IMG/VR virus record: IMGVR_UViG_2529293043_000022
From: a virus
Lineage: Duplodnaviria; Heunggongvirae; Uroviricota; Caudoviricetes
DNA length: 5,170 nucleotides
Reading direction: 5' to 3' (one strand)
Shown: piece after piece, positions 1-5,170 of the stretch
Layout of the letters: every line of letters starts with the position of its first letter
Numbering within the stretch: position 1 is the first letter of the stretch
Notes under the pieces: generated by a model
Database searches by the model: none
What the model was told of the DNA's origin: nothing
The model's input: only the letters and a program-made list of their open reading frames with translations
Translations under genes and position numbers: made by a program

Positions 1-623
<623 letters not shown>

Positions 624-626
<3 letters not shown>

Positions 627-1868
627 TTCTGCCATTGCGCAAGATGGTTGCGGTTTTTCTTCATCATTTTCTTCTTCTGTTTCCTGCTTAGCAGACAGTT
701 CGCGGTTAACTTCTTCCAGGATATCTTTTTCCGGTGTATGTCGTGCAGCAGTGAGAGTTTCCTTGCTGGGGTTCTCGTGATCAGTCTCCGTTAAGTAGGC
801 GTTGATATACCCCTGAAGGCGTCCCGGGTAGTGATAAAACTCAGGGTGAGCGCTCCGGATAAGTGCAAAAATAGCGGCGCGGGAATAGTCCAGAATACCC
901 GGGGTTGCGCGAAGTGCTGCGGACCATTCTTTGAACGGACTTTCTCTTTTCAGGACGATTTCTTTTGCGCGACGATAAACGCTGCCCGGAATTTCATAAA
1001 TATTAAAATCCATCGGAAGTGTGGCTGCTGCAATCTCCACATCCAGCGTATCGAAGGTGTGTACTAAATTCGGATTGCGATCGGTTTTGTTCCCGCCACC
1101 GGCATTTGCACCGGAAGCCGTACGGGTGATACGCGAAACACGATTTCCTTTCATCCACTCTTTTGTCAGCAGACCCCGATCAGTGTAGTCAGCGTCCAGG
1201 TATGCCTCGAAAAAAGCAGTTATCAGTCCCAGGTCTGAATTACCGGGATTAGGGAAAACTTTGTCAGTGTCGCGTACCAGTTTGTGAAGGTCGCGAATCT
1301 CCAGCGGGTCGAGCAGCTTTGTTTTGTGAGAAATGGCCAAGGCAGTAACAGCCGGCAGTTCTTCCGCCCGTGCTATATGTAATGCCTGAAGTTCTTCCCG
1401 TGCAACGTGCGTTACTGGTTTTTCGCTGCCGTGTTGCGCAAGCCAGCGAATGGGCAGCTCCTGACCAGAAACCGGCAGGAGCATATTCTCCTCAATCTCC
1501 GTCATGTCTTCGCCGTTGACGTTGGTATTGTCAGTACTGGCTGGTTTCTCCTGCACGGAGGGAGAGGGCGCGATAAATACCATTGTAATGCCATCTTCCC
1601 CGCCTTTTTCGTATCGGTTGCAGAATTCGGTATCAAACACGCCTTCAGGTGGAAGGTCATTCACAACGGGTAAATGGACGCGAACGGGTTTTTTAAAGTC
1701 GTCTTCATCATAATCGTTGTCATCCATTGCGGTAATGCAGCGGGAGATGGCAACAGATAATTTTTTTGCTGTAGTCCAGTAAAAACCACCTTTAATTCCC
1801 AGACGTTTTCTGACTTTGTCATTTTTTGCTTCGCAATATAGCGCAAATTCTTCTTTATCAGTGCTCAT
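624..1868 (-). CDS. Hypothetical protein, 414 aa, family not recognised; possibly 3'-truncated by the IS
   Basis: Long uninterrupted ORF with ATG at 1868..1866 preceded by GAGG with a 7-nt spacer (minus-strand sense TAATGAGGTTTATCAATG). Contains a glycine-rich segment SGANAGGGNKTDRN and an acidic C-terminal tail. No Walker A, RT (YxDD), Fic or HTH motif seen by eye. Confidence 0.8.
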
Positions 1869-1960
1869 TGATAAACCTCATTACAGATTTAAGGGTGAAC
1901 AAATCCCTGCCATTGCTGGCATTTTTAATCCGTTGGTATGGTGTTAATATGGCTGGAGGG

Positions 1961-2149
1961 TTATCCAGCCGGTGTTTCGTTATTCAGGTACAGCGATACT
2001 TTTTTTACCGGGAGGCATTCACCAGAAATTTTTTGCTCGTCTCTTGCCTGGAGGCAGGATTCTTTACTGGCATAAATTCCGGTAATCACATTCTGTGATT
2101 CACCCGTTATAAGAAAAACCGTCATCATCAGTGCAAATGCTGAAGTCAT
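1961..2149 (-). CDS. Small hypothetical protein, 62 aa, hydrophobic N-terminus and two Cys
   Basis: ATG at 2149..2147 preceded by GGAG with a 7-nt spacer; its ATG overlaps the stop of the upstream ORF as ATGA, indicating translational coupling. The N-terminus MTSAFALMMTVFLITG is hydrophobic, suggesting a membrane or secreted small protein. Confidence 0.5.
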   Translation of the reverse strand: MTSAFALMMTVFLITGESQNVITGIYASKESCLQARDEQKISGECLPVKKVSLYLNNETPAG

Positions 2150-2334
2150 TGACGTTCTCCGAAAATACCAAGTTCAAGAAGAGCAATTCGGGAAAGTATG
2201 GAATTATCATTGAGCAGATAAGGCTCATATTTCCTCATGTTAATGGCATCTTCAGTAAACTCCCGGTTACTGAGCAGAACACCAATATCAAAACAACCTT
2301 CAGACGTATTAACGTTTGGTAATAACGTTTCCAT
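2146..2334 (-). CDS. Small hypothetical protein, 62 aa (alternative GTG start at 2439 would give 97 aa)
   Basis: ATG at 2334..2332 preceded by GAGG with an 8-nt spacer (minus-strand sense GAGGACGCGATAATG). Its stop TGA at 2148..2146 overlaps the ATG of the next ORF. The GTG at 2439 used by the ORF track has no Shine-Dalgarno sequence. Confidence 0.45.
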   Translation of the reverse strand: METLLPNVNTSEGCFDIGVLLSNREFTEDAINMRKYEPYLLNDNSILSRIALLELGIFGERQ

Positions 2335-2349
2335 TATCGCGTCCTCAAC

Positions 2350-2370
2350 AATGAATTTTGTGATGCAGTG
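2350..2370. repeat. Left copy of a 21-bp imperfect inverted repeat (19/21 match to the reverse complement of 2481..2501)
   Basis: Plus strand aatgaattttgtgatgcagtg; the reverse complement of 2481..2501 is agtgaattttgtgatgcggtg. Lies 4 nt upstream of the Shine-Dalgarno of the 2334 ORF. Confidence 0.7.
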
Positions 2371-2389
2371 CCTGGTGCCTCCAGGTGAC

Positions 2390-2410
2390 GTTAACCAGTT
2401 AACAATTAAC
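2390..2410. repeat. Three tandem (G)TTAAC motifs at 8-bp period; possible protein-binding site
   Basis: GTTAACcaGTTAACaaTTAAC read directly from the sequence; lies inside the segment bounded by the inverted repeat and next to a CCTGG-tgcct-CCAGG hairpin at 2371..2385. Confidence 0.4.
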
Positions 2411-2480
2411 GCCGGATACAGAGAATCCACCCATAACACTGTTTTTGGTTTTAACTGTTCCGCGTGCGCTTAGCCGCATT

Positions 2481-2501
2481 CACCGCATCACAAAATTCAC
2501 T
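2481..2501. repeat. Right copy of the 21-bp inverted repeat
   Basis: Plus strand caccgcatcacaaaattcact. The pair encloses 110 bp (2371..2480). Confidence 0.7.
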
Positions 2502-2838
2502 TTAAAAAGGGCGGCAGAGCAGCCACGGAGTAAAACTGATACCGCCAAACGTCACCAGAAAATTGATAACAGAGGGCGTTGCAGCGGGGTTGTCACTTAA
2601 GCGTATGGTCAACCTGACAACCCGGTGTCCTCAATGGGGAAGGAATAACCCCGCCATACTTACCGCCGCGCCATTTCGCGGAGTGCCACAACCGGAAGCG
2701 CACGTTCGAAGAAATCTAACGACAAGCCTTCTAAGGGAAAGAGCTTCGCCGTACGCTTTCGCGTTATGCACTGACTTTTCAGGGAAATATCCTTTCAGTA
2801 AACTGTCAGTACCGGATTCTTATCCGTGTCCGGCGCAC

Positions 2839-2872
2839 GACCACACGTGACAGCGTGTTGGTCTCCATTTTT
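2839..2872 (+). terminator. Candidate weak intrinsic terminator or attenuator hairpin on the plus strand
   Basis: Stem gaccacacg / cgtgt(t)ggtc (9 bp with one bulge) and loop tgacag, followed by tccaTTTTT. The T-run is offset by 4 nt from the stem, so this is a weak call. Confidence 0.25.
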
Positions 2873-2898
2873 AACCCAGAACCTCAATGGAGGATAAA

Positions 2899-3108
2899 AT
2901 GCCAAACAAAAAAAGAAATCCGCTTATTGAAAAACAGATTGAATGCCTGGTAAATCAACTCAGGCAATCAGGGTTATTAAAAACTCATTCAGAGTTGAGG
3001 CTCACAGAATCAGCATTCGACGATAAATTAAATAATGTCCTTTATAATGGCATTATTGATTTTAATCGTTCTGTTGGTCGCCGCGGCCCTGCTGGTGTTT
3101 CCTTATAA
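2899..3108 (+). CDS. Small hypothetical protein, 69 aa as read; the C-terminal part looks off-frame (see the 3035..3145 feature)
   Basis: Strong RBS: GGAGG at 2889..2893, a 5-nt spacer, ATG at 2899. The ORF-track start at 2887 lacks a Shine-Dalgarno sequence. The last ~20 residues (GIIDFNRSVGRRGPAGVSL) look like a hydrophobic helix read out of frame. Confidence 0.5.
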   Translation: MPNKKRNPLIEKQIECLVNQLRQSGLLKTHSELRLTESAFDDKLNNVLYNGIIDFNRSVGRRGPAGVSL

Positions 3109-3145
3109 TTACCAGTCAATCCAGAGTGGACCGTGTTCAGCGTAA
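3035..3145 (+). CDS. Alternate-frame small hydrophobic ORF, 36 aa (32 aa from ATG 3047): MSFIMALLILIVLLVAAALLVFPYNYQSIQSGPCSA; either an independent membrane peptide or the displaced C-terminus of the 2899 gene
   Basis: In the +1 frame relative to the 2899 ORF the codons spell one clean transmembrane-like helix. No Shine-Dalgarno precedes ATG 3035 or 3047. It overlaps the 3' end of the convergent 216-aa gene by 37 bp. Confidence 0.3.
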   Translation: MSFIMALLILIVLLVAAALLVFPYNYQSIQSGPCSA

Positions 3146-3759
3146 ATATAACTGTACACATCCAGATTATATTTGTGGTCTGTTAAGAACAGGCCGCAAA
3201 TACATGCCGAAGCTTCCAGTGCAGCGGCTCTGTTACTGAATAACCATGTAGCAACATTCCAGCGTTTTTCTGCATCCCAGTCTTTCTCAAGGCCTGATAC
3301 CATGAAGAAACCGTTAGTGTTGCCATCAAATAATTCTGTTTCCAAATTTTTAAGCAATGCCTGATGGACTCTTGCCAGGTATTCCGCCGGAATTTCGCCA
3401 CGAATTCTGATGAGATTGTCATAAACAAACATGTTCCCCGCATATGGCGATTTTTCTTTCTTGTTTTTTAAACCAGCATCATGAGCAAACTGATCAATTT
3501 CTTCTTCCGTTGGTTTCGTATTGATGTTTTGCGCTGTCGTTTCTGCAATTTTATTTGCCACACTCTCTGAGTCGTGTTTATTTATAGACGCACAGAAATA
3601 CAATCCGGTAAACGCATCGCGCACATTACGAGCCATATTATCAGTGTCTTTTTTCGTTACCGATTCCAATTCAAGTTCGTTCAGACGATGACGAAGTGTG
3701 TGTGCTGCAATCTCCTGGATTGAAGGAGGTAAATCTTTAAATTCCATCGTCAACCTCAT
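3109..3759 (-). CDS. Hypothetical protein, 216 aa (212 aa if it starts at ATG 3747), family not recognised
   Basis: ATG at 3759..3757 overlaps the TGA of the upstream small ORF (minus-strand sense TGATG), indicating translational coupling. An alternative ATG at 3747..3745 is preceded by GAGG with a 6-nt spacer. Soluble-looking, with no motif recognised by eye. Confidence 0.75.
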   Translation of the reverse strand: MRLTMEFKDLPPSIQEIAAHTLRHRLNELELESVTKKDTDNMARNVRDAFTGLYFCASINKHDSESVANKIAETTAQNINTKPTEEEIDQFAHDAGLKNKKEKSPYAGNMFVYDNLIRIRGEIPAEYLARVHQALLKNLETELFDGNTNGFFMVSGLEKDWDAEKRWNVATWLFSNRAAALEASACICGLFLTDHKYNLDVYSYIYAEHGPLWIDW

Positions 3760-3992
3760 CAGTCAGTGTTTCTGGCTAACCAGCGACGCGCGCCAGCTTC
3801 AGTTTTAAACGTTTTGCTTTTGGTATACGTCATCGCGGTGAACGTACCGTCCTGGTTGGGGAACACGCCACATACCAGAGATTCGTTGTTGCCAAGATTG
3901 AGCGTATCCATGTTGACCTCATTTCCCCTTAACGCCGGGGTAGCGGAACAAAAACCTGCTGCATAGTTATTAAAGTTGAACCCTGCCGTCAT
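3759..3992 (-). CDS. Small protein, 77 aa from ATG 3992 or more likely 50 aa from ATG 3911; it has the size and position of the small ORFs found next to cI-like repressors in lambdoid prophages
   Basis: The internal ATG at 3911..3909 has the better RBS (minus-strand sense GAGGTCAACATG); ATG 3992 has GAGG with a 9-nt spacer. From memory only, the 50-aa form resembles Rac-prophage-type small proteins (YdaF/YdaG-like); this is unverified. Confidence 0.6.
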   Translation of the reverse strand: MTAGFNFNNYAAGFCSATPALRGNEVNMDTLNLGNNESLVCGVFPNQDGTFTAMTYTKSKTFKTEAGARRWLARNTD

Positions 3993-4090
3993 GTTCTTAC
4001 GCCTCGGGCTGGCTACTTAACCCCTGACCACTGCCTGGTAACTCGAAGTATTGCCCTGCATTCTGTGGGGCGGGGTGAGGGAATGAATGA

Positions 4091-4139
4091 AGTTTAGAAA
4101 AACGAACATTTAAGGTCAATGTTTTTTTATCAAAACATT
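4091..4139 (-). promoter_or_regulatory. Candidate sigma70 promoter for the 50/77-aa plus 216-aa operon, with an operator-like palindrome
   Basis: Minus-strand sense -35 TTGACC (4119..4114), 17-bp spacer, -10 TAAACT (4096..4091). The palindrome AATGTTTT-tttatc-AAAACATT (4118..4139) overlaps the -35 and shares the core GTTTT-N6-AAAAC with the site at 4843..4858 in the cI/cro intergenic region. Confidence 0.4.
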
Positions 4140-4203
4140 TTAAGCAGGCAGCTGTTACGCCATCACTACGATGGCATACAGTTAATCAAATAGATGAGGT
4201 TGG

Positions 4204-4842
4204 TTAAATATCTTGTTGAATTTTAAAGCATACTCCCAATATGCAAGATAGATCATCCAGCATAATTGAAGGGTAGCGAGGATTCGTGGGGACTAAAAGA
4301 ATATCCGGCCCTTCTATCTCCAGTTTGCGAATGACAGGCGTTGTGGTCCCTTTGGGTAAGGCAAGGACAATATTTCCTGGTTGTACGATTCGATCGGGAT
4401 CAACAAAAACTGTTGAACCATTTGGGATGGAAACTCCACCACCAGATGTCGACATACTGTCACTCTCTAGAACAACAGCAAAGGTATTGGCCGGGATTTC
4501 TCCGACAAGCTGCACACAAGAGGTTATTGAGGAATTTTTCATATAATCACTCCAGCTTGCTGCCTGCTGAAGTGATAGTAGCGGAACCGTTTTTATCGGC
4601 GGTAAAGATAGATCAAGCGAATCACCTGTATTTAACTCTCCTCCATTAAGAAGCCAATTTTCGTTTACTTTCAATATCTTTGCCAGTGAACTTATGTAAC
4701 GCGAGGACGGCGCTCCTCCACCGTTCATCCATTGACTTACGGAGCCTTTTGATGCGCCAGTGGCATTGACAAGGTCTTTGCCTTTCAAGTTTAGCGCATG
4801 CATACGTTGGGTTATGCGTTCAGATATTGTTTGCTTGTTCAT
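4204..4842 (-). CDS. cI: Phage CI-like repressor, 212 aa (N-terminal HTH_XRE plus C-terminal S24 LexA-type autopeptidase domain)
   Basis: The HTH region (...LVNATGASKGSVSQWMNGG...) and the S24 Ser/Lys dyad (Ser129 in ESDSM, Lys173 in VIRKL, 44 aa apart) match lambda CI and P22 C2 architecture. It is divergent from a Cro-like gene. No Shine-Dalgarno upstream; a -10-like TAAAAT sits 6 nt upstream of the ATG, so the transcript may be leaderless as with lambda PRM. Confidence 0.9.
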   Translation of the reverse strand: MNKQTISERITQRMHALNLKGKDLVNATGASKGSVSQWMNGGGAPSSRYISSLAKILKVNENWLLNGGELNTGDSLDLSLPPIKTVPLLSLQQAASWSDYMKNSSITSCVQLVGEIPANTFAVVLESDSMSTSGGGVSIPNGSTVFVDPDRIVQPGNIVLALPKGTTTPVIRKLEIEGPDILLVPTNPRYPSIMLDDLSCILGVCFKIQQDI

Positions 4843-4933
4843 GTTTTGATTTTAAAACACAGATGGTTTTGTTTCTTGACTTTCTTTGGTTTTGATTATT
4901 AAACTTTTGGCGTTCAGTTTTATGGAGCGACTC
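4843..4933. promoter_or_regulatory. Immunity-switch intergenic region: divergent promoters (PRM-like and pR-like) with two to three operator-like repeats
   Basis: Operator-like sites GTTTTGATTTTAAAAC (4843..4858) and GTTTTGATTATTAAAC (4889..4904), with a weaker GTTTTGTTTCTTGAC (4866..4880), at about 22-23 bp spacing. Plus strand: -35 TTGACT (4876..4881) with a poor -10 (TATTAA/ATTAAA, 4897..4903) and GGAG (4924..4927) before ATG 4934. Minus strand: -10 TAAAAT (reverse complement of 4849..4854) with a poor -35. Confidence 0.6.
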
Positions 4934-5170
4934 ATGAAAAAATCAGAAGTATTAGGCTATTTTGGCGGAGTTGTTAAAACAGCCGCCGCTCTAGGAACGT
5001 CAAAAACCACAGTCAGCATGTGGGGGGAAGACGTTCCGTGGAAATGGGCGTTGCTAATTCAGGCAGTCACTGCCGGGGCGCTCAAATATGAGTTACACAT
5101 ACCGACGGTTGTCATTCCCGATTCTGATCATAATCCGCCTTCTAACCAAGGGGGGATTCATGAAAAATCA
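4934..5170 (+). CDS. cro: Cro-like small regulator (P22 Cro family), 3'-partial or unusually long; runs to the window edge without a stop
   Basis: GGAG with a 6-nt spacer before ATG 4934. The N-terminal ~53 aa (MKKSEVLGYFGG...SMWGEDVP...AVTAGALKYE) resemble P22 Cro from memory (...IVTAGALKYQ...). At least 79 codons are open. A possible overlapping start for the next gene is GGGGGG-N4-ATG at 5160. Confidence 0.8.
   Translation, partial: MKKSEVLGYFGGVVKTAAALGTSKTTVSMWGEDVPWKWALLIQAVTAGALKYELHIPTVVIPDSDHNPPSNQGGIHEKS

Follow-up and report, generated by a model that had tools for sequence, protein, structure and literature searches.

Comparison of the window, the whole 5,170-nt stretch of DNA analysed here, with family models and sequenced genomes indicated that the three minus-strand genes at 624–2334 very probably form the promoter-distal part of a dicBF (early-left, pL-like) operon in the defective lambdoid prophage Sp11. 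The segment at 624–5166 was identical to prophage Sp11 of Escherichia coli O157:H7 Sakai, and a megablast search of complete E. coli genomes returned O157:H7 genomes, Sakai included, at 99.9% identity; by these matches, the element that carries the genes is a lambda-like E. coli O157:H7 prophage in decay. An earlier sequence-only reading had taken the block for an operon of unrecognised proteins and a candidate for accessory cargo, an interpretation that our results partly support.

The layout it had described was recovered from the ORF list and the sequence. There were three minus-strand ORFs of 414, 62 and 62 aa (Table 1), a translational-coupling ATGA overlap between the two small ones ('gtcaATGActtc'), Shine-Dalgarno-like GAGGA, GGAG and GAGG motifs, each 7 nt ahead of one of the three starts, and a 92-bp gap before the longest ORF. 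In the middle protein, the N-terminus is hydrophobic (AFALMMTVFLITG, Kyte-Doolittle 2.1) and there are two Cys residues, while both SGANAGGGNKTDRN and an acidic tail were found in the 414-aa protein. The block is indeed flanked by an immunity gene, encoding a cI-like repressor, and by an IS3-family element. Two features had been overlooked: the gene of the small RNA DicF, and the truncated state of the 414-aa ORF.

Table 1. Positions of the features in the window
Feature	Coordinates	Strand	Content or basis
IS629/IS1203 (IS3 family), right-hand part	1–626	+	orfB transposase 3′ end (ORF 66–584) and terminal inverted repeat
Truncated recE-like exonuclease pseudogene, ECs_2216	624–1868	−	Codons 1–413 of a ~820-aa protein, one junction codon and TGA
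ydfD-exonuclease spacer, 92 nt	1869–1960	−	GGCTGGA/TCCAGCC hairpin spanning the ydfD stop
ydfD-like gene	1961–2149	−	62-aa DUF1482 protein; WP_000199475.1; ECs_2215
dicB	2146–2334	−	62-aa cell-division inhibitor; WP_000449175.1; ECs_2214
dicF-dicB spacer	2335–2508	−	Nearly invariant in mosaic relatives (alignment)
dicF sRNA gene, terminator hairpin and U-run	2509–2560	−	Rfam RF00039
212/216-aa gene, function unknown	3109–3747/3759	−	phrog_2151
DUF1391 (ydfA/ydaF-like) gene	3759–3911/3992	−	PF07151, 1e-29; 88% identical to YdfA
Sigma-70-like promoter TTGACC-17-TAAACT, dicBp (pL-like) position	4091–4119	−	Promoter scan
Immunity repressor, 212 aa, HTH and S24 peptidase domains, lambda cI-like	4204–4842	−	PF00717 and PF01381

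Identity of the small genes and of the operon

The proteins called unrecognised matched curated models in all three cases, namely those of DicB, DUF1482/YdfD and Exonuc_VIII/RecE, and RefSeq names exist for them. PGAP labels them dicB, 'DUF1482 family protein' and 'RecE family exodeoxyribonuclease, incomplete, missing C-terminus', and in the Sakai annotation they appear as a 'cell division inhibition protein' (ECs_2214), a hypothetical protein (ECs_2215) and an 'exonuclease' pseudogene (ECs_2216). As judged from these matches, all three genes belong to described families and are already annotated in reference genomes, with nothing new among them.

The product of 2146–2334 matched Pfam PF05358 over positions 1–62 of 62 (6e-37, 125.5 bits against a cutoff of 27) and NCBIfam NF049927 with 114.2 bits, above the cutoff of 100; these models identify it as DicB. 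Its start was counted from the ATG at 2334, and the open frame reaches further, with a GTG at 2439. The protein was 63% identical to K-12 DicB, and alignment placed the divergence mainly in the C-terminal half, for which reason its target specificity could differ. DicB of K-12 binds MinC, blocks septation and inhibits ManYZ (PMC6832061, PMC10448788), and by analogy the window allele, at 63% identity, may be expected to act on MinC and ManYZ.

The second small product matched PF07358 over positions 1–57 of 57 (2.9e-15, 56.3 bits, cutoff 25) and phrog_1092 (7e-34), and a search of NCBIfam with it gave no match. These matches identify it as a DUF1482/YdfD-family protein. It shared 45% identity with YdfD of the K-12 Qin prophage, which is annotated as 'lysis protein', and the Kyte-Doolittle maximum fell at aa 4–16 in both proteins. 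As in K-12, the gene lies directly downstream of dicB and overlaps it via ATGA. YdfD of K-12 causes division-dependent lysis through inhibition of IspG (PMC8835842); a similar lysis activity would be predicted for the window allele from its 45% identity. BLASTP of the small ORFs against kilR, ydaE and racC of the Rac prophage gave no match; the small-gene module is of the Qin type and not of the Rac type.

Upstream of dicB, at a distance of 174 nt and in the same synteny as in Qin, the dicF gene matched Rfam RF00039 over model positions 1–52 of 52 (75 bits against a gathering score of 48, E 8e-16). It differed from K-12 dicF by 1 nt, and its predicted fold consisted of a stem followed by UUUUU. 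A sub-threshold match to Rfam STnc100 was also noticed at 2302–2511 (34.7 bits, gathering score 47). A region of about 290 nt that begins upstream of dicF and reaches the dicB start was nearly invariant across five prophages that are otherwise mosaic. A match to the dicF-dicB-ydfD stretch was present in 4,654 of 5,426 complete E. coli genomes (86%), at a median of 2 places per genome, and the three O157-type genomes listed had 6–7 places each, in agreement with the reported increase of dicF to four copies in EHEC (PMC7873438).

Residues 13–204 of the 212-aa repressor matched the lambda cI structure 3bdn (5e-10). Ala-Ala occupies the position of the Ala-Gly self-cleavage site of lambda cI, so that the inducing signal is uncertain; the repressor presumably keeps the operon off. 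It was also noticed that this ORF, although intact, is under-annotated in RefSeq. The predicted promoter (Table 1) aligned with TTGACC...TAATCT in the K-12 dicA-ydfA intergenic region, in which dicBp is located, and with corresponding motifs in two relatives. In the interval separating dicF from dicB, the promoter scan predicted no sigma-70-like promoter on the minus strand. At the other end of the small genes, the ydfD-exonuclease spacer was of similar size in intact relatives, and a terminator scan found no U-run after its hairpin on the minus strand.

The gene order, that is, repressor, DUF1391 gene, dicF, dicB, ydfD, exonuclease, xis and int, is that of K-12 Qin and was also found in intact relatives. 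The block had been read as a self-contained three-gene operon; its genes proved instead to be the tail of an early-left operon containing dicF, arranged in the same order in intact lambdoid phages. Both the identities of the genes and their synteny can be read directly from these comparisons.

The truncated exonuclease gene and its ends

Alignments of the 414-aa ORF identified it as the N-terminal remnant of a RecE-family phage exonuclease gene and not as cargo. It matched PF06630 (Exonuc_VIII; 1.6e-34, 120 bits), phrog_607 over positions 1–402 of 883, and NF007259 (exoVIII) over model positions 1–409 of 877 only, with 619.6 bits, below the equivalog cutoff of 1269. Its residues 58–413 were 57% identical to residues 50–397 of the 866-aa RecE of Rac. 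The 813-aa protein of phage vB_EcoS-640R1 was 92.7% identical over residues 1–413, and the first ~414 codons of the gene for an 820-aa '3′-5′ exonuclease' in the OkiPb01688 prophage differed from the ORF by one substitution and a one-Glu indel; this full-length gene adjoins genes for identical DicB and DUF1482 proteins (same WP accessions). The sequence-only reading had proposed the ORF as a cargo gene and had named a match to a known housekeeping or phage-morphogenesis family as speaking against this; the match to a known phage exonuclease family comes near to that case.

At the C-terminus, full-length relatives carry a DEDDh Rv2179c-like domain (PF16473 at aa 632–803 in the 813-aa relative), whereas Rac RecE carries a PD-(D/E)XK domain (PF12684 at aa 615–850). 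The RecE-type N-terminal module is therefore common to two unrelated nuclease classes. No nuclease domain was matched by Pfam in the 414-aa product, and since the DEDDh domain has been deleted, the product cannot be an exonuclease. A protein homologue search with the ORF gave, among the 120 matches listed, only E. coli entries of 95–100% identity, mostly partial and cut at contig ends, and a PDB sequence search with the 414-aa fragment returned nothing significant (best E 0.2). The ydfE gene was considered as a homologue of the ORF and rejected, as BLASTP gave no match.

By nucleotide comparison, the O157 sequence matches the exonuclease gene as far as 'GCAATGGCAGA' and from there runs on at int codon ~251 ('ATGATAATCAG'). 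A deletion of 2,313 bp has joined exonuclease codon 414 to int codon ~251, with loss of the nuclease domain, xis and the first ~250 int codons, and as a consequence the last sense codon and the stop come from the junction. The sequence 'TGATAATCAG...' is the rest of int′. In the window, the IS629 inverted repeat (TGAACCGCC...) begins right after codon 414, so that the TGA of the IS itself serves as the stop codon of the remnant. Truncation and junction are thus both visible at the nucleotide level.

The terminal inverted repeat of IS629 ends at 626 (TGAACCGCCCCGGG on the minus strand), its ORF at 66–584 matched NCBIfam transpos_IS3 (7e-62) and Pfam rve, and the IS part shared 99.7% identity with the repeat_region that the Sakai annotation lists as IS1203. 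The exact junction of IS629 with recE′ was found in one piece in none of the 5,426 complete E. coli genomes. The exact 414-aa protein is ubiquitous in O157 assemblies that have no IS beside it, and the ten O157 places shown by a look-up of the protein all lacked an adjacent IS. EDL933-like genomes are without the IS, and in Sakai, 7636 and MB41-1 it lies elsewhere. The IS arrived late and is peculiar to the strain; as the window starts inside it, a simple insertion and an IS-adjacent deletion are indistinguishable.

With its start and Shine-Dalgarno sequence intact, the truncated ORF could still give a protein. It is improbable that, on derepression of the operon, the remaining 413-aa N-terminal region is made and acts as a scaffold or dominant-negative partner of recombination or host proteins and that, separately, DicB and YdfD of O157 have other targets. 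Very improbable is the reading of the ORF as a functional, neo-functionalised protein, in which the RecE N-terminal region acts alone. The intact ATG and Shine-Dalgarno sequence and the absence of internal stops are consistent with it, as is the occurrence of the exact protein sequence in 3,529 blocks of the assembly collection; however, O157:H7 is a recent clone, so that identity across strains is uninformative on selection. The fusion of the N-terminal module to two unrelated nuclease domains suggests an independent unit, and the RecE N-terminal region, described as of unknown function, enhances linear-linear recombination (PMC11611040). On the other hand, the ORF terminates where the deletion happened to join it to other DNA, with the final codon and the stop supplied by int sequence or by the end of the IS; the same event destroyed xis and int, as is typical of prophage decay; and PGAP flags the gene as a pseudogene. 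Among the full-length relatives, none was seen with the 414-aa form as a natural stand-alone gene. The exonuclease remnant is most likely inert.

Related prophages and the cargo interpretation

The closest described counterpart is the dicBF operon of K-12 Qin (dicA / ydfA-ydfB-ydfC-dicF-dicB-ydfD-ydfE′, followed by IS2 and intQ′), which has the same gene order and orientation as the window. The two share a stretch of about 290 nt, which begins upstream of dicF and extends into dicB, at about 95–100% identity; in both, the DUF1391 gene comes first in the operon behind a dicBp-like promoter, dicB and ydfD overlap at ATGA, and the downstream pseudogene stands beside an IS and a broken int. They differ in the repressor, which is cI-like with HTH and S24 peptidase domains in the window and the short DicA in Qin, and in the genes standing in for ydfB and ydfC, which in the window are the 212-aa gene and a convergent 69-aa gene. 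The downstream pseudogene of the window is RecE-like, whereas similarity to ydfE of Qin was not detected by BLASTP. The C-terminal half of DicB and the whole of YdfD belong to an allele class other than that of Qin (63% and 45% identity, respectively), and two such classes of the dicB 3′ half and the whole ydfD were seen among the five prophages compared. By their C-terminal divergence, the DicB and YdfD of the O157 class could have targets unlike those of the K-12 proteins.

RecE (exonuclease VIII) of Rac has a homologous N-terminal region with the Pfam Exonuc_VIII domain and a conserved SGANAGGGN motif, and its gene occupies the same place as the remnant, downstream of cell-division-inhibitor genes in an early-left operon. 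Only the N-terminal half is left in the window, and the full-length close relatives differ from Rac RecE in ending in the DEDDh Rv2179c-like 3′-5′ exonuclease domain, with no recT after the gene. In the OkiPb01688 prophage, which lies next to rspB, the DicB, DUF1482, 212-aa and 69-aa proteins are identical to those of the window. This prophage, vB_EcoS-640R1 and the PPompW prophages have a dicB-ydfD-exonuclease-xis-int architecture; unlike the window, intact relatives keep an exonuclease ORF of 813–822 aa together with xis and int, and in PPompW_EH2201 the exonuclease ORF is frameshifted. Their immunity regions differ, being of the RacR, cI or DicA type, as would be expected of lambdoid mosaics.

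These comparisons bear on the proposal that the three genes constitute a moron, an accessory or defence cassette that is autonomous, has a promoter of its own and was acquired as cargo at a site flanked by the immunity region and the IS. The G+C content does fall to about 0.40 over 1650–2400, the genes are dispensable for phage growth, and DicB expression in K-12 gives ~25- to 100-fold resistance to lambda and ~10-fold resistance to phage 434 by blocking ManYZ-dependent DNA entry (PMC6832061). However, K-12 Qin and intact inducible phages share the genes, their order and their position in the early-left operon, the dicF-dicB interval held no promoter-like site on the minus strand, and the IS that would bound such a cassette arrived late in particular strains. 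A scan of six window proteins against PADLOC-DB (E ≤0.01) returned no match and so lends no support to a catalogued defence system. We therefore regard an autonomous cassette as very improbable. Of the proposed moron or defence cargo, what stands is that the genes are non-essential, conserved, host-directed prophage genes, with an anti-phage activity of DicB (PMC6832061); the designation as a moron does not. The block is conserved content of the early operon, neither a moron nor a new defence cassette, and the anti-phage effect of DicB was already published.

Conservation of the reading frames bears on the possibility, allowed for in the sequence-only reading, that the small ORFs are spurious if unconserved in related loci. 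A concatenated DicB and YdfD query recovered the adjacent DicB-DUF1482 pair, with a span of ~371 nt, in 20 phage records, e.g. mEp460, Tritos and HannyBb. Against homologues, dN/dS was 0.10–0.50 across all three ORFs; for the small genes, each compared with three homologues, it was 0.12–0.50 for dicB and 0.37–0.41 for the ydfD-like gene. Although the two 62-aa ORFs are short, and chance ORFs of such size are common (41 of at least 40 aa by six-frame listing in 5 kb), their being spurious calls in non-coding DNA is practically ruled out, refuted by full-length Pfam, NCBIfam or PHROG matches for both far over threshold, by the pair with the same overlap in the 20 phage records, by dN/dS of 0.12–0.50, and by the published phenotypes of both K-12 homologues.

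Proposed working of the operon and its significance

From homology with K-12 Qin, we infer how these alleles would be transcribed and regulated and what activities they would have. The cI-like repressor would silence the promoter at ~4091–4119, and upon loss of repression leftward transcription would cross the DUF1391 gene and the 212-aa gene. RNA processed or terminated at dicF would yield the DicF sRNA, which would repress ftsZ and other mRNAs; described targets of DicF are the ftsZ, pykA, xylR and manX mRNAs, and the regulation and processing of dicBF have been reported (PMC10448788). Read-through transcripts would give DicB, which would take MinC to the septum and thereby block Z-ring formation, and which would also inhibit ManYZ, so that DNA entry by lambda-like phages would be blocked. 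Because dicB is separated from the promoter by the DicF terminator, expression of dicB and ydfD would depend on such read-through. From the same transcripts, via the ATGA overlap, the small membrane protein of the YdfD type would be made, the K-12 counterpart of which gives division-dependent lysis by IspG inhibition. The exonuclease remnant would be what is left of the next gene downstream.

The result matters little beyond correct annotation: what had been a candidate for a novel cargo operon proves to be known biology. The truncation of the exonuclease gene is now mapped at the nucleotide level, and minor by-products are the under-annotated repressor ORF and the presence of a RecE-type N-terminal module in two nuclease classes. 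The locus is one of several described dicF/dicB copies in EHEC. DicF influences the expression of LEE and Stx2, and DicB and YdfD are toxic on derepression.

The RecE-type module and the IS629 junction

The N-terminal region of RecE type, composed of Exonuc_VIII and an SGANAGGGN stretch, is joined in this prophage lineage to a DEDDh Rv2179c-like 3'-5' exonuclease, whereas in Rac RecE the same region is joined to a PD-(D/E)XK 5'-3' exonuclease instead. According to the annotation of vB_EcoS-640R1, PPompW_EH2201 and OkiPb01688, xis and then int come directly after the exonuclease gene, and no recT is annotated there in these three.

At bp 586-629 of the window, the terminal repeat of IS629 abuts codon 414 of the exonuclease remnant, the truncated gene of this family, so close to the older deletion junction between exonuclease gene and int that only 2-5 nt separate the two. 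The original stop codon has been replaced, and the remnant now ends at a TGA supplied by IS629. Since the left edge of the window lies inside IS629, insertion and IS-adjacent deletion both fit the junction. The exact junction was found in none of 5,426 complete E. coli genomes; in other O157 strains, IS629 occupies three different positions within the adjacent int'/dinI stretch or is lacking.

Features of the window and of three comparison records (L006, L008 and L005)
Feature	Position	Strand	Remarks
Near-invariant stretch	2335-2620	-	from 60 nt upstream of dicF, via the 174-nt dicF-dicB spacer, to the first ~50 nt of dicB
Gene for 69/73 aa	2887-3108	+	phrog_4274
Gene for 212/216 aa	3109-3759	-	phrog_2151
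DUF1391 gene	3759-3992	-	ambiguous start
cI-like repressor gene	4204-4842	-	uninterrupted ORF for a complete repressor of 212 aa; HTH domain aa 17-64, S24 peptidase domain aa 113-197
RecE-type N-terminal region, gene in L006	6001-8442
RecE-type N-terminal region, gene in L008	3233-5695
RecE-type N-terminal region, gene in L005	4787-7387

The early-left region

Comparison of five mosaic prophages revealed that ~290 nt around dicF and the start of dicB are nearly unchanged, and that the coding DNA on both sides is split into two allele classes. This suggests either a constrained RNA element, with processing sites or a leader, for example, or a recombination hot spot. The match of the dicF-dicB spacer to Rfam STnc100 was below threshold (34.7 bits vs 47).

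The genes for the 69/73-aa and 212/216-aa proteins are convergent within the early-left operon region, the former standing where Rac has sieB, and neither product had a Pfam, NCBIfam or PADLOC match. Because its ~75 N-terminal residues are common to several other PHROGs, the 212-aa protein is suggested to be modular. The stop codon of the DUF1391 gene shares one base, position 3759, with the first ATG of the ORF that comes next. Read from its own first ATG, the DUF1391 ORF has 77 aa; its Pfam match starts at residue 28-29 (MDTLNLG...), as do YdfA and YdaF, its homologues in K-12, and RefSeq gives 50 aa.

Repressor and cro-like genes

Residues 13-204 of the repressor matched the lambda cI structure 3bdn (5e-10). 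Although its DNA is the same as that of Sakai, the gene annotated in Sakai and in RefSeq covers no more than the C-terminal 112 aa (339 nt); the product is 174 or 212 aa long according to other gene callers. Alignment to lambda cI showed that the positions of the catalytic Ser and Lys are kept (SDSM and IRKL) and that the self-cleavage site is Ala-Ala (QQAASW) rather than Ala-Gly (VQAGMF in lambda cI); this substitution may impair RecA-stimulated induction.

On the right-hand side of the IS, the window differs from Sakai only at 5163-5167, where it has a run of five A's rather than four, just past the cro-like gene's ATG (ATGAAAAATCA vs ATGAAAATCA). This one-base indel lies at the extreme edge of the window, and the cro-like gene would be frame-shifted in one of the two strains.
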